From positions 17,982,001-18,046,000 of the forward strand of contig NC_045696.1 of assembly GCF_009834535.1 (NCBI RefSeq): a DNA stretch of 64,000 nt. Reading direction: 5' to 3'. Made by a program: the position numbers and the translations under genes. The notes below the pieces were generated by a model. The model made no database searches, was not told where the DNA came from, and was given only the letters and a program-made list of their open reading frames with translations. Positions within the stretch are counted from its first letter, which is position 1. Each line of letters starts with the position of its first letter. The DNA comes from Camelus ferus (lineage: Eukaryota). This document shows positions 2,895 to 61,225 of this stretch, piece by piece.

Positions 2895-4270
2895 AACATG
2901 TTGTTTCCAATGTAATATTATTATCATAAAAAACCCTGAAATAAACATCTTGGTGTAAGTATCCTTGTCTGCATACACAACTCTCACTAGGAAATATACT
3001 TGGAAATATGTATTGGGTTGCTATATTGCTATGTTAATTAACTATTAATCAATGGCTTAAAGGCTGTTTGCAAGAAATGTGATTAAATTACTCTCCAAAG
3101 TAGGTATAGTAATTTTCACACATACCAACAAAGTTAAAAATCTCTTGTCTTTCTACCTCCAGACCATCATTAGAGATTGTAAGGTTATTATTATATTATT
3201 ATCTTGGCTTATAATTGACTTACTTGACAATTTCATGATTACAAATTTGGCTGTATTTTTTTTTTTTTATTCATTATCTCCCTCCACAGATTTTAAGTCT
3301 AGCTCTATCATATGCCAAGTTCCTACTCCATCCACTGAGATGTTTATCTTTTCCTGCACCTATTTAAAGTGCTTTGTCTGTGTTTATTCTCCATTAAGTC
3401 TAATACCCAGGAACACAAGAACCTTTCATTCACTACTTATTTTTCACTTTTAAAATTACAGTGATATCCATGGTCCTTTACCATACACATTTTAGAATAA
3501 CTTTGTCAAATTATATGAAAAAGTTCTAGATATAAGTTAAATTAAATTTTATTAAGATTAACTTGAAAATATCAGTTAATTTTGAGAATTTACTACTAGG
3601 GCAAACTGAATCTTCTCACCTGTAGATATGGTGATTTTTCCTATTCAGACCTTCTGTTGGGGCGATCCATAATTTTTAAAGTTACATTCACTTTACTCAA
3701 GCCCATTTTTTAATTTACCACTAAGTACATTATAAATTTCATTGATATAAGAATGATTATGTTGTTTTAGTGTTTGTTGCTGATATATAGGAACAATGTT
3801 GATTTTTAAATATTGCTGCTATTTGACAGGAATCTGTCTGAACTCTCTCTTCTTCAGTTTACTATTCCAGATTCTCTTGGATTTCTGTACAATTATAAAT
3901 AACTAAAGCATTGATATAGTATCAGGATCACTTCTTCAATCCGATCCCTTTCAATAGTAGTTTTGTTTTGTTTTTTAACTGTTGCTTGGCCTAGAGTCAG
4001 CAGTATAATTTTCAATGTTGTGCTCCATTGAATTCATCACATTTTTATTAAAAATGGCAATGATTCAATAATTCATCATTGATGTTTGATGAAGTTTATT
4101 TGGTAAATATCTTTTGAAGTTTAAGAAATTTATTTATTTTGAAGTTCATTCATATTTATTTGTATTGAAGTTTATTTATAATCTTAGATCTGTATGTTTA
4201 AAATCAAATTTTTTCAACATATTCACACATTGATTATAACAGTAATATAACTTTTCTCCTTTAGTCCACT
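2895..4270 (-). mobile_element. Highly decayed L1ME-like antisense fragments
   Basis: ATAAACATCTTGGTG, TTTTAGAATAACTTTGTCAAATT, TTGCTGATATATAGGAACAATGTTGATTTT, CAGATTCTCTTGGATTTC. Confidence 0.6.
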
Positions 4271-7149
4271 ATACACATCAGTGTGTCTGTACATCCTTTC
4301 AAGTCAGTGATGAAGCCAGAATATGTTATATGAGAGGCTGCCCGGACACTCTGGTCTGAGGCCAACAGTAAAGTGAGTTCTTGGATTTTTTTTAATCTAT
4401 AGAGTCAACTTTTAAATAATGCCAACTAGCAAGAAATGTGATGTCAACAAAAAATATATACTTAAGATTTTATGATTTATGACCTGATTTGGCTTGACCA
4501 GAGTTCATGGAAGAAGTAGAGGTGTATTACTCCTAAGTTGTTCCCAAATATAAAAGTTTGGTTTCATATATATACATATATATATACAATACATAATTTA
4601 AAAATACCTTTATTTTTAAAATTTAGCTATTCACTCACATTTTCTTAATTATTGCCCTTGGGGTAATCTTATAGTGCAACCTACCACATAGCCATTTTAG
4701 ATGAGAGGTTTGAATTTATTACATCTTTTTTTCTTTTTTTAAATCACTGATGATGACTGATATAGAACAGTCTGCTTTTTCACTAGCTTTGTGTTATTTT
4801 ACTCTAACAGGAGCTTGTTTTATGTTGCTTTTTAAATTAAAAAAAATAAACCTACTTTTATATTTTATTTCCCACGTCCATAATATTTGATGGTAGTGTA
4901 TTATTTTAATATTCTACTGGATTATTTCGAATTTAATTTTGTAGTTAGGTGAGACTGCTTTCTGGTTTCATTTACAAAATTATACCATTCTCATAAAAAA
5001 GCAGGCTATCCTGGCCTGCTTTTCTACTGTCTATATTCAAAAAGAGTTTTTAGAAGATAAGCATTTGATAATTTAGTAAAAATTTTTTTTCATTGTATTT
5101 CAGATAATTCTCATTTTAACCTTAAAATATATTAGAATAAATTTATTGATAATATAATCCTGATTTTTTTCCCAATTTTCTTCTTTTCTCTCGTGTATTA
5201 ATATTTTTAATTGCTTTACTCTTCCAGCTTGAAAATGTTTATACTTTATTCCTCCAAAAATCTCTAAAATTATTCCACCATTTTATTGGTCTTTTCTCTT
5301 TCATGAATTTCTGCCTTTAACTTTATGATTTGTGTCTCTTATCTCTTGTCCAGAAGAACTAATTTACCTAGATGATTCTCATGTTCTTCAAAAAAAATCT
5401 TTAATGCATTTATTGATTAGCTTTCTTTCACTTCTTGCTTGTTATTTGATAAGTTTCTTTAAAAATTCAATTTACTTCCTAATTATGACTATGTATCCAT
5501 CCCATATGTTTTGTTATGTATTTCTTCTGTTAGTTTTCTTTTTATTTATGGAGACAGTAGTAGAAAGGTTTTCCTGTCAACAGTTCACTTTGAGGATGGT
5601 ATCCAGGTATAAAATAAGGCCCCACTTAAAGGGACTACCTTACTGTATGCATTTTATAAACTATATGATTGGAAAAGCATTAGGTCCCTCTGCTGCAGTG
5701 ATAAGAGTTGTACTCCAAGCCTCAGGGTTGCAATAAAATGTAGCAGGAACTTAGTTTCCAGCCCACTTCTACCTAATTAGTATTCACAGCTGGGAAAGAA
5801 CCAGCCGCTTCCATGCCCACACAGCTGAATGAATTCCAGCCGTGGAAGTCACCTGCTAAAGCACTACTCCATAGCTGATTTCCATAGAGCTCAGTAGAAA
5901 GCCAGTTCCCTTTCTGGGATAAGTTATCTCTTAAATGCCATAAATATTTCATAATTCCAGAACGACTGCTCTTTAACTTACCAGTTAATACCAAGAGAGT
6001 TATTTGATTTCCAAATGTTGGTAATTGTATTGTTTCATATGTTACAGGAAAATAAAATAGGATAAGTGAGATTGGAAATGTCAGTGGGTTTTCACTTTTT
6101 TCCTCATATCCTCTGTTAACTAAAAAGTTAGATACCCTTGTCAATCTTTTCTTGTATTAGCTTTAAAATGCTGAAGTATGTAGATACAGATATAATATAG
6201 ATATATTTTCATACCTATATTGTGGCTGTGTTATCACAGTTTTAGATTAACTCCACTGCGTCACTATCACTTTAAAGAGAAGCTAATTTTTTTGTGCCTT
6301 GAACATTATTACTGAGATATAATTGTCAGTTAACTTTCATATGGTTAATAAAATGCATAGGAAGTAAAGAAAAATGGGTAATTCTTCTGAAGAGGAGATA
6401 TCTATTGAGAAAGAATGCCAATTTAACTCAAGACAATTTTGTTTTCAGAGAGACATACTGAAATGTTAGGTTTATTTTTCAGAATAGGAGGAACAGTTTC
6501 TCAATTTTAGAATTTAAAGGATTTGCTTATCTCTGGTCAAATGATAAATGCTGAATGCTGCTAGCTGACTGAATCAAAACCAGGGGGTTTGATCTAATCA
6601 ATTATATGTTACTAAATTAAAAATGTTAACATTTGAATCATACATGTTAAAATGAGAGGATTGTGGTCAATTATTCTGATCAATAATTATGATCTATAAA
6701 AGTTCTGTGTTGTGTATAAAGAAATATTCTTGATATAAATATATGATTTTATTGCAGCAAACCATAGGATGTATTTCACAGTAAATAAAAGAAAAATTAT
6801 GTTCAATATTTGTAACAGTACTGCATGATCTTGAATTCTTCTCTAAGCATGCATATAAATTATAGATAACTATTACAGTAAATGATTTTATCTTTTGTAA
6901 TTAAGTAGCAGATAATAAAGACATCAGACATTTCCTCACAGTATTACAAAATGTTATTTTTGTTAGCAACGGTTTGCCATATCCACCATAAACAAGTCAA
7001 AACGATCATATACCATGATGACTCATTGTTTTTAAATCTAAGTGACATAAATTCCCCATTAGAGCAAACTCTGAACCATTAATATTTTATTAACTTACAG
7101 GCCTGTATCTGGATATTAGAAATGATAAAAAAAATTCAGAAGGATCCAC

Positions 7150-52100: not shown

Positions 52101-53019
52101 GAGAAGCTATATAGCTTCTCACAAAAGAAAATATCTTTTCTGAAAATGAAACATTCCCTATTGTGGTATAATAAATATATAAATCACACTGAAAATCACA
52201 GACAGTAGAAGCTAAGCTTGTGTTCCTTAATTTGTCTTAATAATAATAGTAAAAAAAAAAAAAAAAAACCAAAACCTCTGCAACAGTCACAAGCTGAACA
52301 TTAAAATTATTTGAAAATAATTCATGGCAGTTAGGAAGGAAGCATGGGATAATCCTGTCCTCTTAGGAAGTTATCTAATTCTGTTCAGCAGACATAAGTG
52401 TCTTATCTGCATTTACTCACTATATTCACCTATATTATGAGAGATATTCAAAATTTGGACTTTTTTTTTATCACTATTGTAATTCAGATCAAACATTAAA
52501 GAGACATGATAATTATATATCCAAAATAGTGTTTGAAATACCTCTCCTGACTAATTTTCTCCCATCAAACATGACTTCAAGCATTTAGAAATGATCATTC
52601 AGTAAAATCTTATTCTGAAAGTAAAGTACCTAGCCCAGTTTCCCTGTGACCTACTCTGAGCTTATTTTGTTGATTGAAAACATAAGACTGCTCTTTCAAT
52701 ATGTGAAAACTGCGACAGTCTCAATTTTGTCACTGTTTTATCAAGCAGATATAATCTTTCATAAGAGATTAAGAGCAACACATTCTGGCGTACATTTAAG
52801 CTATGAGAAAATCTTTTTGAACTATTCAAAAGGGAAGGTTTTTTGTTATGAACGTTTGCATATTTAAACATGGACTCGGTGCTGGCAAAAGATAATTTAT
52901 AGCTAGTATGTCACATATCATATTGTCTATACTTTTTCCTGCCAAAATTCAGGTCATTCGTAATAGCAAGTTATGCATTTTATGGGACATTAATCAGGCA
53001 ATCAGCTGTTGCAGGATAT

Positions 53020-53300
53020 TAAAAAGGGCCTTGCTAACGGAGAAGAGTGATTGGAAAATTTCTTAGGAAAACTCAATTATAGATACAACAGTTCATTTAT
53101 TTCAGCTGGCTGGTTAGCATCAACCCTATGGGCAATAGCACATGGGAGTGACAGAACTCAAAATGTATGGAAACTGGGTCCCTGACACCATCAAGCTACC
53201 AGATCAGCCATGTTGTTAGGTGAGAGGTAAATTATAACCAGTTTAAAGCACTGTCCTAAGGTCTCTTTTATAGCAGCTTCACTTATACCTGATTATTCAT
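53020..53300 (+). mobile_element. Old MLT1 (J/K-like) LTR fragment
   Basis: ATGGAAACTGGGTCCCTGACAC..GTTTAAAGCACTG..TAGCAGC..CCTGATTATTCA. Confidence 0.55.
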
Positions 53301-53906
53301 TACATCACATTAACCAATGCTAACATATCACTCAATGAATCTGAAAGCTTTCATTATAACGGGTACATTTTATAAATATATTTTTTCTGTTATTTCTCTT
53401 AATTATTTCTATATGCCAGTTCACTAATCTATCATAACTAAATATACTAAAATATAGAGATAGTGTTCACTCAGTTTGTGCTTTCTGTGTGTGTGAATTA
53501 AAAGTTTTGATTGGTTAATCTATAAATAATTGCACACAGAGAGAATTTTATGTTATCTATACAAATCCTATTTTTCATACTATTTCAAACCCAATCAATC
53601 ATTTGAGAAAAATAGGATTCCATTAAGAAATGGCTTTCTGCAGAGCAACTGCAAAGCAAATTACACAAAAGAAGACAGTTTCCCTCCTCCTGAAATTCAA
53701 ATTTCTGACATAGAGCACACAGTCCTCCGCGCATTAAATAATCCACGCGGTCCATCCTCCTGCAGCTTTGGCTTCCACTCAGCTTGGAGCTAGATTTTGC
53801 TTTTCTGCTCCCATTTCAATACCTTAGTGATGATGGGAAATGAAGTCAGAAAGGGAACAAAGGGCTTGATGTTACTCTACGTAAGTATTTCAGAAGATCT
53901 ACTCCT

Positions 53907-54184
53907 GCCACCCCTCTCCCTCCCTCTCTGGAGACAGCCCACACTCTGTCTATGGACTGTGTACCTACTTTTAATCTGAGCTCCCAACCCCCACACCTCA
54001 TGGCCTTTCTCTTGCCTTTCAATGTATCTCTCTGGATAAATCTACCTTCACTCAACTGTGGCTCGCTCTTGAATTATTTCCTGCGCGAAGCCAAGGATCT
54101 ACGCTTGGCGGGGCACGTCCCAGGGGCTCAACCGAAGCCTGGGACACGGCCCTCCTCATGCCCCATATCTGTTTTCCTGCATCA
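53907..54184 (+). repeat. 5' truncated LTR (R + U5 only)
   Basis: 53907-54051 aligns without gaps to the 3' R (17 mismatches in 145). The following sequence ends in ...GCATCA at 54184, complementary to the TGA... LTR start at 58815, and the PBS follows. Confidence 0.88.
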
Positions 54185-54190
54185 TATCTC

Positions 54191-54210
54191 TGTCACCCAA
54201 TGTGTGGGGC
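54191..54210 (+). promoter_or_regulatory. Degenerate primer-binding site, tRNA-Lys(CUU) type
   Basis: TGTCACCCAATGTGTGGGGC versus canonical TGGCGCCCAACGTGGGGC: two CpG-type transitions, one G>T change and a 2-nt insertion. It lies 6 nt after the U5 end. Confidence 0.7.
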
Positions 54211-55214
54211 ATTTACATAAAGAAACAGGGCTCAAAGGGCATAATTGCGATCCGCCTATTGGGCTACAGCTCCCCCCTCTTCGGAGGGTGGCAGGGGGTT
54301 TCTCCTGTGCCGTGCAGATTCAAGTAGCCCTTAGGTGGCAGCTGACATGGCCTGCAGGATCTGGTAGAGACCAGTTCTCTAGCGGTGAAGGAGCCCACCG
54401 AGCCCAAGGCTTCTCTCCCCTTGATCTTTTCTCATTCCCTCCTTTATCGTTCTATCTCTTTGGACTTGAGAAGATCCACTAAGGCAACCACTCGGACATC
54501 CAAATTAAGACCACGTGGCAAGTAATTGGCAACTTGATTGGGTGAGCTTCCCCTCCATGGCTCTTTGAGCCCAATTCCACCTCTCTGCACGGAGCTGTTC
54601 TGGTTCCGGGATGCCAGAACTGTGAAAGGGGGCCCAAATTAGGGGACTCCGGGAGTTCCCCTTTAAAAATTTGTGGCCCAACCCTTCCCGAGTGCCCTTG
54701 GGGCATATGGCCTCACTGCATCCATAGGCGAAGGTGAGAGTCGCGGGCGGGCACTCCCTTTGCAGATTGTGGGTTTTGCACTCCTGAACGAGAATTACCA
54801 GCGAGTGCTCTGTCACAGGTTTGCAGGTTTTAGCACCCCTCGTTGGGGTCACAGGTTTAAGCACCCCTGAGTGAGAGTTGCTGGCGAGTGCTCTCCACAA
54901 GTCGCAGGTTACAGTGCCCCTGGGTGGGAGCCGCAGGCGGACGCTCCCTCAGTGGGCCTACGGATCTCTGGTCTGGGAAGCATGGAGGCTATAGCATTCC
55001 TTTTTCATTCTAGATTTCCACCTTTCAATGCTATTTGTTTCTCTTTCACAAAACGTAATTTGCTTAGTTGACTCAGGACCCGGGTCTCCTCCTTCCATCT
55101 AAAGGATTTAGACTCTGGGACTCTAGTCACCTCTTCTCCCTCTGGCCCTTGCTCCTTTCCTTAACTAGTCTAAAGGAGCCACCTCAGGCTCACAGATAGG
55201 ACATCCTACCCAGA

Positions 55215-56748
55215 ATGGGAACAACTACAAGTATCCCAAAGGACTCCCCGCTAGGATGCATATTAGTAAATTGGAAAAAGTTTAAAAAGAATAGTTTGAA
55301 GAAAAAGGAATTAATTTTCTTTTGTAATACTGTATGGCCCCAATACAAACTAAGGGACCAAGAATTCTGGACAAAGAATGAGTCACTAACTTACAATGCC
55401 ATCTTGCAGCTAGGCCTATTTTGTAAAAGAGGCTGTAAATGGGGGGAAATCCCATATGTCCAGATGTTCCTGACCCTATACCAAAACTCAGGTCTAAGGA
55501 ACTCCTGCCGGATATTCCTGGCCCGCCTCCCCTCTAAGCATCTCCTCCCCAGGAGCTTGATACTCTAGATGACCCCCTTACTGAGTCCAGCTCCCTAAGG
55601 TCCACAGCCAGAAGTTCCTATTTCCCCCAACTCTGAGGGGGAACAGTCTTCCCCATCATCTCCCTCACCAGAGGAAAGTCCTCCAAGTACTATTCCAAGT
55701 GGGGCCAACTACCAACCTCCTATTACCAAACTCTGCCCCTTAAGGGAAGTGCCAGCTGGTGATGGAGGAACAGTCAGAGTTCACGTCCCCTTTTCTATGA
55801 ATGATTTGGCTACCTGCAAGGAGAAATTTGGACATTTCTCTGAGGACCCCAGAAGGTTCATGGAGGAATTTGCCAGGCTGACAATGGCCTATGAGCTCAC
55901 CTGGAGGGACCTTTCAACCTGCTGCACTTTCAAGGAAAAAAGCCGGATCCTCAGCGCAGCGCAGCCAGGGCATATGCTGATGAACTGGCTGCCCGCAACC
56001 AGGGGCACACAGTCTCCCTTACTGGGGGGATGCAATCCCTGACCAAGACCCCCACTGGAACCACCACCAGGGAGGTAGAGGGCTTGAATGCAGAAACCAT
56101 ATGGTTACTTGCCTCACAGAGGGGATGAAAAAATGTGTTGTTAAGCCCATCAACTATGACAAAGTCAGGGAAGTAACACAGGGAAAAGATGAGAATCCAG
56201 CCCTCTTCCAGGGTCGCTTAGTGGAGGCCTTTAAAAAGTACACTAATATTAACCCCAAAATCCCTGCGGGGGAAGCCCTGGTAAACACCCACTTATCACT
56301 CAGTCAGCCCCAGACATCAGGAGACAATTACAGAAGGCAGCTCTGGGACCCCAGACCCCGTGAATCAGCTCGTGGATCTGGCATTTGGAGTATTCAACAA
56401 TAGAGACAGGGTTGAAGAGGTAAGAAGGATCCAGGGAAAACAGCAAAAGGCAAAATTCCTAGTGTCTTCCCTAACCCTTGCACCACCTCAGGGTTACCCT
56501 CCTTCAAGAAGACCCACGGTGAGGACAGGATCCAGGATGCCTGGATCAGAGCCACTGTCTTGCCAAAAAGGGACCTGTTTTAAGTACAGCCAGGAGGGCC
56601 ACTGGAAGAACAAATGCCCCATGTATGGGGAAAGTCCACCAGGACCCTGCCCTATATGCAAACAAAAAGGCCACTGGAAGCAGGACTGCCCTCAGTCCCA
56701 AAAGGGGCTTGGGCTCCCAAACCAATGATGGCTGAAATAACTGAAGAC
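55215..56748 (+). pseudogene. gag: ERV gag (MA-CA-NC), frameshifted
   Basis: MGTTTSIPKDSPLGCILVNW...LIFFCNTVWPQY (HERV-W/9/H-like matrix with Gly2); RVHVPFSMNDL (capsid start); VTQGKDENPALFQGRLVEAFKKYT (MHR); zinc knuckles CFKYSQEGHWKNKC (degenerate) and CPICKQKGHWKQDC. Split over several ORFs. Confidence 0.93.
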
Positions 56749-57080
56749 CGACGGGGCCCGGGACCCTCCCTGGCTCCCACAGGACACCTGGTCATTTCTC
56801 TGGAGGAGCCTTAGGTAACCCTTGACATGGCAGGTAGAAAAGTTGTCTTCTTACGAGATACAGGAGCCACCTACTCTGTGCTGACTGATTTCCCTGGACC
56901 CTTGTCCTCCCAATCCTGTGTAGTAATGGGGATTGACAGAAAGCCCCAAACCAAGCGATTTACAGCCCCCCTTAGCTGCCTGCTAGAAAATTTTACCTTT
57001 GCACATCAGTTTTTGCTTATGCCTGAGTGCCCCATCCCCCTTTTGGGAAGGGATTTACTCACTAAATTCCAGGCAAAAAT
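56749..57080 (+). pseudogene. pro: ERV aspartic protease
   Basis: FLRDTGATYSVL active site (DTG at 56857-56865) and CPIPLLGRDLLTK motif; in-frame TAG at 56812-56814. Confidence 0.92.
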
Positions 57081-58354
57081 TCTAAAATTCCTAGAAGCAG
57101 TCCAGCTTCCAAAAGAGGCTGCAGTCATACACTGCAGGGGTCACCAAAAGGGCAATTCCTCCCTTATACAGGGGGACGCCCTCGCAGAGAAGGCTGTGGA
57201 AGCTGCAGCCAGAGAACACACAGTCTTATAAGCTGCAGTTCTCCCACCTGAGGACCAGCCTCTCCCAACGGTGCCGTCCTATACACCTGAAGTGGTCGAA
57301 TGGGCTAAACACAGGGGGCTGGAAAAGAATCTCTCGGTGGCTGACAAGCTCCTCATTCCTGGGGACAAACAGTGGAAAATAACTAAGCATCTCCACGAGT
57401 CCACCCACCTAGGGTGGCACTGCATGCTCAGACTAATCTCTCAAGTGTTCCCAGGCAAGGAACTGTCCCAAACTGTTAAGGAAGTCACTGGGGCCTGTGA
57501 ACTTTGTGCCCGCAATGACCCAGGGAGTCACCCTGTACCCCGACCCCTACTCCGGCCCACACAACATCGGGGAACGTATCCAGGGGAAGATTGGCAAATG
57601 GGCTTTACCCAGACGCCCTCTTGTAAGAGATGGAAATACCTGTTGGTACACATAGACACCTTTACAGGGTGGGTAGAAGATTTCCCCACTAGAACAGAAA
57701 AAGCAATAGAAGTGTTAAATTTTCTGCTGAAAGAAATAATCCCAAGATTTGGGCTACCAAAAAGCTTACAGAGTGATAATGGACCCTCCCTTCACTGCCA
57801 AGGTGACTCAACAGGTTTCCTCTGCTCTGGGTATTAACTATCACCTTCACTCTTCCTGGAGGCTCCAATCCTCAGGCAAGGTGGAAAAAGCAAATCATGT
57901 TCTAAAGAGAACTCTTGCTAAGCTATGTCAGAAGACTTCAGAAACCTGGGTCCCCTTCCTGCCTATAGCCCTTCTAAGAGTAAGGATGGCCCCTAAGGGA
58001 ATTTTAAAACTTAGCCCATTTGAAATGATTTATGGGAGGCCCTTTTTAACTTCAGATTTCCTGTTTGATGAGGAAATTCATAGATTAGTTTCCCACATTG
58101 TTGGCTTAAGTCAAGTTCAAAAGGTTCTCCAAGAATATGGAAATAAAGTGTTGCCCTTTCCTACAGAGGAAAAGGTTGAAGTCCCTGTCCAATCAGGGGA
58201 CTTTGTCTTACTAAAAACTTGGAAGGAGGGGTCCCCTGAAGACCAGCTGCAGCCAAAATGGAAGGGATTATATCAGGTACTACTGAGCACCGCAACTGTC
58301 GTTAGGCTACGAGGAATTGCTAGTTGGCTACATCTGTCCATAAAAAACCTGTAA
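57081..58354 (+). pseudogene. pol: ERV pol remnant: C-terminal RNase H plus integrase; reverse transcriptase absent
   Basis: RNase H end LEAVQLPKEAAVIHCRGHQKG. Integrase HLHESTH...CELC zinc finger, PGEDWQMGFT, IDTFTGWVE, LQSDNGP, SSGKVEKAN and KWKGLYQVLL (GPY/F-like). Stop at 57229-57231 and a frameshift near 57790. Confidence 0.92.
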
Positions 58355-58439
58355 CTTATAAGCCCCAACAGGAGCCCAGAGAGACCTATGCTTACGAGGC
58401 AATAGAATACCTCAGGTAGCTGTTTAAGAAAAACAAATA

Positions 58440-58800
58440 ATAACGTGTAGCGGTGGTTACAAATGTTTAACCGTGCCTTTTAAATCTTTTTGTTGTTACA
58501 GACTGTCAAACTGTTGTTATGAAGGTGCTTCATCTTTAAGAAAATTCATCAGAAGTCAATGGAAACAGTGGGTTACAGCAGCCCCACATCAGATGCTGGC
58601 TGTGCGAGGATTCCAGCCCACACCCTCAGCCCTTGGACGCCAAAAACAAAAGGCTGTCCTGCCTCTGGGACCTCTAGATTAGGCACTGAGAGATTTTTAC
58701 TTCCTGATAGGCAGGGTCAACGCCCCTACTCAGCCTGGAAGCAGTTTCAGAAGAGGGACCTTCGTCCCTCTGAAACTCCATAAGATTATGGGAGTAAAAT
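58440..58800 (+). pseudogene. Probable env cytoplasmic-tail / 3' UTR remnant (env almost wholly deleted)
   Basis: Only ~450 bp separate the IN end from the PPT. The peptide QMLAVRGFQPTP...LGPLD resembles class I env tails. No SU, furin site or CX6CC motif is seen. Confidence 0.45.
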
Positions 58801-58804
58801 CTCT

Positions 58805-58814
58805 GAGGGGGGAA
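58805..58814 (+). other. Polypurine tract
   Basis: GAGGGGGGAA immediately before the TGAGAC LTR start. Confidence 0.85.
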
Positions 58815-59293
58815 TGAGACAGGGCACAGCCACTCAAGGAAGGCCATAGCAATTAACATCAAAATGGTGAAAGATTCAACCCCTAGAAGGCCTCGAGGCT
58901 CAGGATGATGAGAGATTTAACTTCTAGTAGATCTTGAGCTTTCATTACAAGCCCACTGTAATATATTAACATTGTGAATAACATGACCACAGGCACCGTG
59001 GCAGTCCCAAGGCTAGCCACAAAAGGTCAAAGGGTGGGAAATGGCCAACTTCCTGGGAATCCCAGCCCCTTCCCCTTAGACTGGTCCTTCTACTTATTAG
59101 CATATGAAGCCACCAAACCCATAAAAACCAGCAACACGGCACCTCACGGCCGCCCCCCTCTCTCCCTCTTTGGAGGCAGCCTACATTCTGTCTATGGAGT
59201 GTGTACCTACTTTTAATCTGAGTACCCAACCCCCACACCTCGTGGCCTTTCTCTTGTATTTCAATATCTCTGTCTGAATAAATCTACCTTCAC
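58815..59293 (+). repeat. 3' truncated LTR (U3 + R only)
   Basis: Starts TG after the PPT. TATA-like CATAAAA at 59120-59126 lies ~25 nt before the R start (59149). AATAAA at 59277-59282 is followed by a CA end and poly(A). Confidence 0.9.
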
Positions 59294-60149
59294 AAAAAAA
59301 AAAGAAAAAAAAAGATCTACTCCTGGCTTCTGTGTTCTGCCAGATCCAGGAGGAAACAGTGAGATCACTTAGGAAGTTCCTGCAATAAAAGGGACTCAGT
59401 GTGATAAAGGTGACTCTAGAGTCATAGCTGAGGAGATGGAGAGATCTGGTCGCACTCTGCACGTGATAAACTTCCACACACACGCGTCTTGCTGTGCTGT
59501 ACTTGTTCCTAGACTCGCAGGACTGTACTCCCTCCAAACCCCTCTCTCGTGATCTAATCCTCGAAAAATTTCAGGCATTCAAAGAAATGAATAAGACATT
59601 CTTTCAACTGTATACTTCTTTGGCTCTTGCAACCTAAATTTTGCTGACACAGGGAATATAAATGTCTTGCCTGTTGGTTCAGGCAGAAGGGGTGGTCAAC
59701 CCTAGAAAGACCAAAACATATATCAGTATCTCAGAAAATTTTCCTTTATATATATATATATTTTTTTTTTCTGGAAACATATTTATTTCTATCCCTGCAT
59801 TAAATATATTAGGTGGTGCAAGATGAGAATAAGTTTTAGATAAGACTTAGTTTTAGATGAAACTAAGCTGCTGAGTGGATTGTGTGCATCCCAAGGAGGT
59901 TTTTCCTTATAACAAACTCCATTGGGATGCAAGAGGAACATAATTCATTAATGTGCATATCTATAAGAAATATGTGCAAATGCACATGTGTACCAACATG
60001 AAGATTTGCTTATATAGATACTGAAAAACTAAATTGAAATTAAGCTTTATCATGTTTATAATATGGAATATTTATTATATCTTTCAAACATATTTTACAG
60101 ATATTAGGTGTCCCATTTTGTAAGCCAGGTACTCTGGAGATGACTTTTC

Positions 60150-61225
60150 TCTATGATTAGGGACAAGGCTAAGATAATTACTCTTATGATTTCTATTCCA
60201 TATGAAATGGAGGTTCTATTCAGTGTACTATAAAAATAAAATAAATCAAATAAAAATGAAATAAGTACAGTTTGAATGAAATAAAGTTGTCTGTCTTACA
60301 GAGGATATGACTACTTAGAAAATCACAGAAATCTATAAACACACATGCATAAACATACACTAATTTGCAAGTTCCCAGGTTATAAGGCTAATATTCAGAA
60401 AACAATTTTATTTTAATATACTAGCATTGAGCAGTTGTTAATTGAAATTAAAAATAGAATACTACATGTAATTTCATTCCAAAACATAAGGAATGCTTTT
60501 AGGTATAAAACACATCTATCCAAATATCTAAACAGACAAACAAACTGACCAAGTACTGGTGAGAACACAGAGTAAAGGAACTCTCTCATGCATTGCTGAT
60601 GGGTATACAAAATGTTAACAGATATTGCAAAAAATAGTTTGAGAGTTTTCTCACAACATTAAACATATATTTATAAGATGATTCAGTAATTCCACTTCTA
60701 GACATCTCAAGTGAAATAAAAACTTATGTTTACATAAAAAAACCTGTATAAGAATGTTTATAGCAGCTTTATCCATAATATACCCAAACTGGAAACAATA
60801 CAATTGTACAATTGTACTCCAACTGAGGAACAGATAAACTGTGTATCTGTGTGTACACTATGGAATACTACTACACAACAAAAATGGCAAACTAGTGATA
60901 CACTCAGTAGCACAAATGAATTTCAAATGCATTAAGTGAAAAAAGCCAAAGTCATAATGCTATCTATCATGTAATTTTATTTATATGATATTCTAGACTA
61001 GGCGAAACCATTGGAACCTGAAAACAGATTACTGCTGGATGTACAAAGACAATAACTACAGCTACAAAGGACATTTAAGGGAAAATGTCTTACGTGATGG
61101 AACTGCTGGTGTTGATCACTGTGGTGATTATATGGCTGTACTGATTTGCCAAAACTGGAACCATCCACTAAAAATGGTGAATTTTATTGCATGTAAATTA
61201 TACCTTAATAATGACAATGGAAAAA
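60150..61225 (+). mobile_element. Old L1 (L1MC/ME-like) ORF2 end and 3' UTR
   Basis: GGAACTCTCTCATGCATTGCTGATGGG, AGAATGTTTATAGCAGCTTTATCCATAAT, GGTGAATTTTATTGCATGTAAATTATACCTTAATAA. Confidence 0.8.

Follow-up and report, generated by a model that had tools for sequence, protein, structure and literature searches.

A Camelus ferus endogenous retrovirus relic with the structure of an L1-type retrocopy, and the processed copies of its family

Copies of retroviral RNA made by LINE-1 (long interspersed nuclear element 1, L1) are textbook knowledge for one primate family of endogenous retroviruses (ERVs), HERV-W. A retroviral integrase needs the ends of the long terminal repeats (LTRs) and makes target-site duplications of 4-6 bp, whereas in mammals a poly(A) tail together with a duplication of 7-20 bp is the product of L1, whose signature is poly(A)-primed insertion at TT|AAAA-like sites. 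SINE-R/SVA elements, which are LTR-derived and end at a retroviral poly(A) site, are L1-dependent retroposons built from the 3' end of HERV-K, and SVA is a self-propagating lineage that keeps transcribed source copies. ERV copies made by L1 are treated as a recognised category in a passage of PMC6114882, and HERV-W is called the sole group of human ERVs mobilised by L1 in PMC5537654. The human genome is reported to hold 135 processed and 65 proviral HERV-W loci (PMC5016936), and processed copies are described as unexpectedly absent from the ERV-W relatives of Platyrrhini, the New World monkeys (PMC6995185). The only artiodactyl case found in the literature is ARTenvV, a co-opted env gene of Hippotraginae that is presented as a single L1 retrocopy of a spliced mRNA, with a 14-bp duplication and an A-run (PMC9604959). 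The subject of the present analysis is a 5.4-kb ERV relic at positions 53894-59325 of a 64-kb stretch of the Camelus ferus genome (contig NC_045696.1, positions 17,982,001 to 18,046,000; hereafter the window, within which all element coordinates are given), for which relatives were sought in a 2.09-Gb assembly. As detailed below, this element is very probably an L1-type retrocopy of the full-length, unspliced genomic RNA of a defective gamma-like ERV that encoded gag, protease and integrase, carried a 1.9-kb deletion of reverse transcriptase (RT) and RNase H, and had no env.

The ends of the element carry this reading. The 5' R (53908-54051, forward strand, as are all features listed here) begins at the transcription start of the family, with host DNA only and no U3 upstream, and is followed by a U5 of 133 nt (54052-54184, ending in CTGCATCA; the LTR end was mapped on the C10 provirus, and U5 is 133 nt long also in solo and 3' LTRs). 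At the other end, a U3 of 334 nt (58815-59148), which starts with TGAGAC right after the polypurine tract GAGGGGGGAA (58805-58814, read directly from the sequence), leads into the 3' R (59149-59293) with an AATAAA signal at 59277-59282; no U5 comes after it. Instead, a poly(A) tail of the form A10-G-A9 (59294-59313) starts 11 nt past AATAAA. The two R sequences (53907-54051 and 59149-59293) are 88% identical over 145 nt, and a TATA-like ATAAAAA (59121-59127) lies in U3 about 21-27 nt upstream of the R start (59148/59149). U3 and U5 each occur once in the 64-kb window, with no U3 upstream of 53907 and no U5 after 59293. Both ends of the element are bracketed by a perfect 14-bp direct repeat, AAGATCTACTCCTG, at 53894-53907 (with TTTCAG just before it, and a final G that is possibly the first base of the element) and at 59312-59325, where the last two A of the tail overlap the duplication. 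The original prediction, which was made from the letters of the window and read the locus as an L1-retroposed ERV mRNA, had named each of these terminal features, namely the start at R with a TATA-like box before its 3' counterpart, the poly(A) end 11 nt past AATAAA, the missing 5' U3 and 3' U5 and the perfect 14-bp duplication, and all of them were confirmed.

The same ends can be compared with what has been described for HERV-W processed pseudogenes, for which the criteria of Pavlicek et al., as given in PMC5016936, include R-U5 and U3-R ends, poly(A), a TT/AAAA motif and a duplication of 5-15 bp. The window copy has the R-U5 5' end, the U3-R 3' end, the poly(A) tail and the long duplication, and is colinear with the proviral transcript. 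The insertion motif resembles TT/AAAA only loosely in the window copy, and across the family (24 copies) T-rich sequence precedes a duplication whose first bases are rich in A. What marks a provirus, that is complete LTRs (U3-R-U5, TG...CA) with a duplication of 4-6 bp, is absent from the window copy.

Relatives of the element, whose loci in the assembly are labelled by L-numbers (e.g., L004) and C-numbers (e.g., C10, C2:868), show that these ends recur. Eight of the nine best other 3' ends terminate in TTCAC(TC) followed by poly(A), and one runs on into U5. At the 5' side, the 30 best loci with R-U5 and leader comprise 17 without and 13 with U3. In the BLAST alignments, the starts of all 17 copies without U3 fall within about 2 nt of a single G, and 13 of the 17 show the full GGC(C/T) of the proviral U3/R border, which lies about 20 nt after the ATAAAAA box. 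Where both ends are available (n=12), seven copies combine the lack of U3 with poly(A) (the window copy, C2:868, L004, L030, L031, L021 and L025/L046), five combine U3 with U5 (C10, C5:840, C7:236, C12:513 and C6:931) and none is mixed.

A census of junctions indicates the size of the phenomenon. A 26-nt pattern laid across the R-end/poly(A) or the R-end/U5 junction, with at most 2 mismatches, matches 386 and 1409 sites, respectively, and the reversed-pattern control yields 0 for both; exact matches number 150 (33 + 117) for R-poly(A) and 538 for R-U5. These pattern-based counts are lower bounds, and at a divergence of 12-15% the 2-mismatch limit would miss well over half of the true sites. 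Two samples of 20 junctions, one of each type, were taken at steps among the matches listed and are therefore non-random. In the R-U5 sample, which was drawn from the exact matches, U3 precedes the junction and host DNA follows U5 in every case; all 20 are solo or 3' LTRs, with neither processed 5' ends nor 5' LTRs followed by leader among them. Two ways in which the interpretation could have failed can thus be set aside: the LTRs of the family do not themselves begin at 53907 and contain the A-tract (1409 R-U5 junctions, with U3 upstream in all 20 sampled), and the window copy is not the single such copy in the genome (386 R-poly(A) junctions). Of the classes that the original prediction had proposed to look for genome-wide, full proviruses, solo-type LTRs and R...poly(A) copies with long duplications were all encountered among the relatives sampled.

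Several loci of unusual structure were encountered. The U3-less copies L022, L026 and L035 (G000:C1:95177776, C8:4880792 and C8:47114666) share at least 1.4 kb of upstream flank with 84-86% identity and the same junction; judging from this shared flank, they would go back to one retroposition event whose product was subsequently duplicated, or would belong to a larger unit that is itself repeated, and are counted as one event. Two partial copies, G000:C37:88607870-88608543 (minus strand) and C37:88623412-88624085 (plus strand), are near-identical and inverted, 15 kb apart on contig 37, and may be an inverted segmental duplication. The U3-less L021 (G000:C37:61088187-61091818) ends a few bases before the splice donor, with a short A-rich word and poly(A), and has a 15-nt flank repeat; an internal deletion, a template switch and an unusual 3' end are all conceivable explanations.

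The target sites point to an L1-type enzyme. The 45 nt before the element were compared with the 89 nt after R in 28 processed copies, with 756 mismatched pairs as a control. An exact shared word of at least 10 nt is present in 18 of the 28 copies against 7 control pairs, and one of at least 9 nt in 20 copies against 38 control pairs. No exact match in a control pair exceeds 11 nt, so that the 14-nt match located exactly at both ends of the window copy is not due to chance. The clear duplications, found in 24 processed copies, are 10-22 nt long, with a mean of 15. T occupies positions -4 to -1 before the duplication in 12, 10, 16 and 12 of these 24 copies, respectively, and A occupies positions +1 to +5 of the duplication in 18, 17, 19, 15 and 14. 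Five copies are truncated at the 5' side at differing points (positions 4457, 4705, 4764, 4782 and 4825 of the query), three of them with clean duplications of 11-21 nt; such truncation affects five of the eight U3-bearing poly(A) ends.

Under the proposed mechanism, transcription of a source provirus would have begun at the cap site on the U3/R border, and the RNA would have been cleaved and polyadenylated 11-13 nt past AATAAA in the 3' R. A LINE-1-type enzyme would then have nicked an AT-rich target and reverse transcription would have been primed on the poly(A) tail, leaving R-U5-gag-pro-IN-U3-R-A(n) (IN, integrase) between 14-bp target-site duplications. The enzyme was presumably L1 rather than another LINE, and the RNA sources were presumably U3-bearing proviruses or LTRs. 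The same route appears to have given hundreds of copies of the family, of five kinds: full-length with or without RT, 5'-truncated, spliced, chimeric with host exons, and consisting of R only. The L1-type retroposition of an ERV mRNA that was proposed for the window copy is thus upheld, given that the R-U5...U3-R structure, the poly(A) and the long flank repeats recur in many independent relatives.

Certain observations weigh against this interpretation. The A-rich start of the duplications is partly forced by extension of the repeat into the A-tail (the T-richness upstream is not). The nick site of the window copy, TTTC|AGAA, resembles the motif of the L1 endonuclease only loosely; the TTTC/AGAAG that the original prediction had likened to an L1 endonuclease target is present, with this limited degree of similarity. 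Eight of the 28 processed copies lack an exact repeat of at least 9 nt; several of these eight are visibly decayed (e.g., L005 with 14/17 and L006 with 11/12 matching positions), and three or four are ambiguous (L053, L055, L056). Among five proviruses, the 4-bp flank duplication is perfect in one (CACC), matches at three of four positions in another and is without a match in three. These 4-bp repeats are too weak a contrast with the processed copies, from which the proviruses differ in having neither a long duplication nor poly(A). There is no paralogous empty site in the genome, the 608-bp 5' flank being unique. Finally, the role of L1 rests on general knowledge of what this element produces in mammals.

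Spliced copies record the RNA stage. In several U3-less copies, the leader is joined directly to sequence located after pol. The join reads GATTGG|TCTTT in L004 and L030 and connects a GG|GT donor (cut at 54542|54543, within GATTGG|GTGAGC at 54537-54548) exactly to an AG| acceptor (58483|58484); AG stands directly before the acceptor side in unspliced relatives, and the window copy has AA there (58482-58483). In L031, the acceptor is a second one, 18 nt further downstream (TTACAG|ACTG, 58501|58502), and the join shows a few substitutions. In L027 (G000:C17:11830901-11834521, minus strand), the same major donor leads into host coding exons that encode an F5/8 type C domain (Pfam); these are followed by a 3' untranslated region, a poly(A) tail and a flank repeat about 19 nt long. 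L027 is thus a retrocopy of an LTR-driven chimeric mRNA and shows that an LTR once drove a transcript of a host gene in the germ line, and the spliced copies are proof of an RNA intermediate. Such copies serve as natural records of 5' and 3' rapid amplification of cDNA ends (RACE) and of splice junctions, obtained without RNA data. The original prediction that the window copy maps the transcription start and poly(A) sites almost to the base is borne out and extended across the family, in that the start site, the poly(A) site, the major donor and two acceptors of the family are fixed to the base.

The most numerous processed kind is the smallest one. The sample of 20 R-poly(A) junctions (9 exact-match junctions not previously examined and 11 with the commoner TTTAC variant) includes 17 minicopies that consist of R only and three copies that carry U3. 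The R-only minicopies are about 145 nt long and extend from the start site to the poly(A) site, followed by an A-tail; 16 of the 17 start with GGC..., and 13 have clear duplications of their own, with the other four decayed or ambiguous. These loci are L050-L062, L064 and L067-L069 (L050, for example, is at G000:C1:44054975-44055780, minus strand), and their flank repeats measure 8-19 nt. By extrapolation, R-only minicopies probably make up about 300 of the 386 R-poly(A) junctions. The favoured origin, in which we place reasonable though not full confidence, is that they are L1 retrocopies of short RNAs that were started and polyadenylated within one LTR: R holds both signals, and solo LTRs are without the downstream donor that could suppress the 5' site.

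Like solo LTRs, the R-only copies could in principle be products of recombination, here between the 5' R and the 3' R of full-length processed copies with deletion of the interior. Such 'solo R' formation would leave the same product, i.e., duplication, R, poly(A) and duplication, and recombination between LTRs was very efficient in this family, as all 20 sampled R-U5 junctions belong to solo or 3' LTRs. However, R is only 145 nt long, and for recombination to suffice, L1 would have had to insert the 5-7-kb RNA at full length about nine times in ten, which would be atypical of this element; a short LTR RNA with the start site and AATAAA both inside R explains the R-only excess directly. Recombination is accordingly a possible but doubtful source. 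The origin from short RNA is preferred because five of the eight U3-bearing ends are truncated and yet such ends account for only three of the 20 R-poly(A) ends. Compared to solo LTRs themselves, the R-only copies are without U3 and U5 and have poly(A) and duplications of 10-22 bp rather than 4 bp. On the preferred origin from short LTR transcripts, a broader picture can be drawn to which we incline by a narrow margin: R would be a self-contained RNA polymerase II mini-gene with the cap site and AATAAA 130 nt apart, and thousands of solo LTRs would have made a polyadenylated RNA of about 145 nt that was copied by L1 several hundred times, yielding a class similar to short interspersed nuclear elements (SINEs), beside an independent non-primate counterpart of the HERV-W burst.

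For the window copy itself, the alternatives fare much worse. Insertion by a reverse transcriptase other than that of L1, either from another LINE clade or by retroviral RT and integrase acting on an aberrant RNA, is very improbable. The family does encode RT and integrase, and the role of L1 is deduced from the products rather than from L1 itself; but retroviral integration does not give poly(A), duplications of 10-22 bp, random 5' truncation and a T-rich/A-rich target, and insertion primed from poly(A) at sites of the TT|AAAA type is established as the mammalian L1 signature (see the criteria in PMC5016936). Still less credible is the idea that integrase made an ordinary provirus here, from which the 5' U3 and 3' U5 were deleted afterwards, with the A-run and the 14-bp repeat arising by coincidence. 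Old proviruses are often damaged, and the R pair of the window copy differs by 12%; however, both breakpoints would have to fall exactly on the start and poly(A) sites of dozens of independent copies, the exact 14-nt end repeat exceeds all 756 control pairs, and six other copies with both ends known share the paired structure, none being mixed, so that this reading is effectively refuted. It is equally hard to credit that the structure arose in the assembly or by segmental duplication of a processed copy elsewhere: duplication of processed copies does occur, as the common flank of L022, L026 and L035 attests, but the 608-bp 5' flank is unique genome-wide, the nearest relative of the window copy is only 88-91% identical, and 20 public runs from 8 studies under three organism labels contain 66-73% of the sampled 31-mers of window positions 53000-60200, a 7.2-kb stretch of which the flanks make up only a quarter, which argues, in a comparison of words rather than of junctions, that the copy is real and shared.

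The interior of the window copy is that of a defective retrovirus. Six nucleotides past the LTR end is a decayed primer-binding-site-like stretch (54191-54210), which may resemble a tRNA-Lys site with CpG decay, which would be an unusual naming for a gamma-like ERV; the word also lies 6 nt past the 5' LTR of L012, the usual spacing being about 2. In ERV-W and HERV-9 the primer is tRNA-Trp or tRNA-Arg, and in HERV-H it is tRNA-His. The leader contains the major splice donor identified from the spliced copies L004, L030 and L031 and the chimera L027. Open reading frames and Pfam matches delineate gag (55215-56728), in at least four reading-frame pieces, with an MGTTTS start, a Gag_p30 capsid and a CCHC knuckle. 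Together with alignment, they also delineate the protease (RVP, 56815-57075), which reaches up to the deletion junction at 57075-57076, where, according to the whole-element query and the alignment, about 1.9 kb with RT and most of RNase H are gone. The RNase H tail and integrase (H2C2, rve and MLVIN_C) follow in two frames at 57076-58354, again located by open reading frames and Pfam, and the region after pol (58462-58502) contains the two splice acceptors and no env. Altogether, the Pfam domains of the window copy are Gag_p30, zf-CCHC, RVP, Integrase_H2C2, rve and MLVIN_C; the Pfam scan found no RT and no env domain, and no env remnant was seen in any copy examined, in agreement with the original description of the element as env-less. 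Relatives, including L047-L049, have an additional AT-rich stretch of about 300 bases that separates integrase from the splice acceptors (at window 58462); it is missing from the window copy and its RT-deleted kin. The window as a whole is AT-rich (33.8% G+C) and contains no second copy of the family.

The proviral relatives have complete LTRs of the form TG...CA. Three of them, L012/L010, L013/L042 and L036/L045, show no matching 4-bp flank repeat, which may reflect recombination between proviruses, or decay. The C10 provirus contains the domains RVT_1, RT_RNaseH_2 and RNase_H within the 1.9 kb that are absent from the window copy. In the whole-element query, a breakpoint recurs at query positions 3164-3168, and the identical deletion junction (window 57075|57076) is present in the window copy, the processed C2:868 and the proviral C5:840 and C7:236, the latter two being colinear with the window copy. 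A single RT-less lineage appears to have multiplied both as proviruses and as L1 retrocopies, because the junction is the same in two proviral and two processed copies; its RT-deleted proviruses would have needed RT supplied in trans. Retroposition was not confined to this lineage, as at least one RT-bearing member, L025/L046, was also retroposed, with a 15-nt duplication containing one mismatch. The original label of an RT-less ERV is therefore correct for the window copy and one sub-lineage, but not for the family. From its domain content (a Gag_p30 capsid, an MLV-type integrase C-terminus, and RT/RNase H in complete members; MLV, murine leukemia virus), the family is assigned to class I, gamma-like ERVs. 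The nearest solved capsids in PDB are MLV-type, and Pfam, PDB and ESM Atlas place gag only as Gag_p30/MLV-type; for a finer classification of the virus, PDB and ESM Atlas gave only generic gamma-type or retroviral matches. Of the HERV-W/9/H-like gag named in the original prediction, what is shown is a gamma-type (MLV-like) capsid.

A maximum-likelihood tree built from 30 5' regions has a star-like shape; its end branches have a median length of 0.1, and that of the window copy is 0.08. Processed and proviral copies are interspersed on it, with 10 label changes, a number as low being reached in 331 of 500 shuffles. This distribution rejects processed copies as a clade of their own and implies that they were drawn from the same expressed pool as the proviruses, in more than one subfamily. 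A self-propagating, L1-dependent retroposon of the SINE or SVA kind was likewise considered and rejected, since the copies are without U3 and the tree has no master lineage. Being without the U3 promoter, processed copies are dead ends and look like by-products of expressed proviruses and LTRs. The suggestion that the family spreads by means of L1 can thus be kept only in part: heavy retroposition of the family's RNAs by L1 is what the data show, and 'spreading by L1', in the sense of self-propagation, is overstated. The branch lengths together with the 12% divergence between the R sequences suggest an age of tens of millions of years, at a typical, uncalibrated neutral rate for mammals.

Among described systems, the closest counterpart is that of the Catarrhine HERV-W processed pseudogenes, which share with the present family the R-U5...U3-R structure colinear with proviral RNA, the poly(A), the long and variable duplications and, at the level of the family, a TT/AAAA-like target. 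In both cases, true proviruses and many solo LTRs exist alongside, and processed copies account for about half or more of the loci with internal sequence (17 of the 30 best 5' ends here). Unlike HERV-W, the present family resides in a non-primate host, is env-less and includes an RT-deleted sub-lineage multiplied by both routes; exactly spliced copies and a chimera with host exons are documented, and R-only minicopies dominate numerically. ARTenvV resembles it as an ERV-derived RNA retroposed by L1 in an artiodactyl (PMC9604959) but is one copy of one domesticated env gene, in contrast to the hundreds of genomic, spliced and R-only copies found here. As in SVA, LTR-derived sequence extending to a retroviral poly(A) site was moved in trans by L1; unlike SVA, the processed copies of this family are without U3, are interspersed with proviruses and have no master lineage. 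Finally, intron loss, poly(A), target-site duplications and 5' truncation are features in common with processed pseudogenes of cellular mRNAs, from which the family differs in that the template is a retroviral genomic or subgenomic RNA, resulting in partial LTRs, and in that each source family has far more copies than a typical gene. The open full-text literature yielded no description of processed ERV copies at family level in non-primates, or of R-only retrocopies, Dfam, Repbase and subscription journals lying outside the scope of the search. In a term search of a survey of transposable elements in Camelus and alpaca (PMC8605555), 'processed' occurs once in an unrelated sense, 'pseudogene' is absent and no such family is mentioned.

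Taken together, these comparisons identify the ERV family as a large non-primate case of the known HERV-W-type phenomenon, with the R-only class as a possible new variant. One practical consequence concerns annotation: several hundred 'LTR fragments' in this genome would be R-only retrocopies and are not to be counted as retroviral integrations. More generally, a further case, independent of HERV-W, larger and from a different order of mammals, offers a comparison for what makes a retroviral RNA a good L1 template, for which the level of germline expression, a poly(A) signal in R, and the loss of env or RT are candidate factors.

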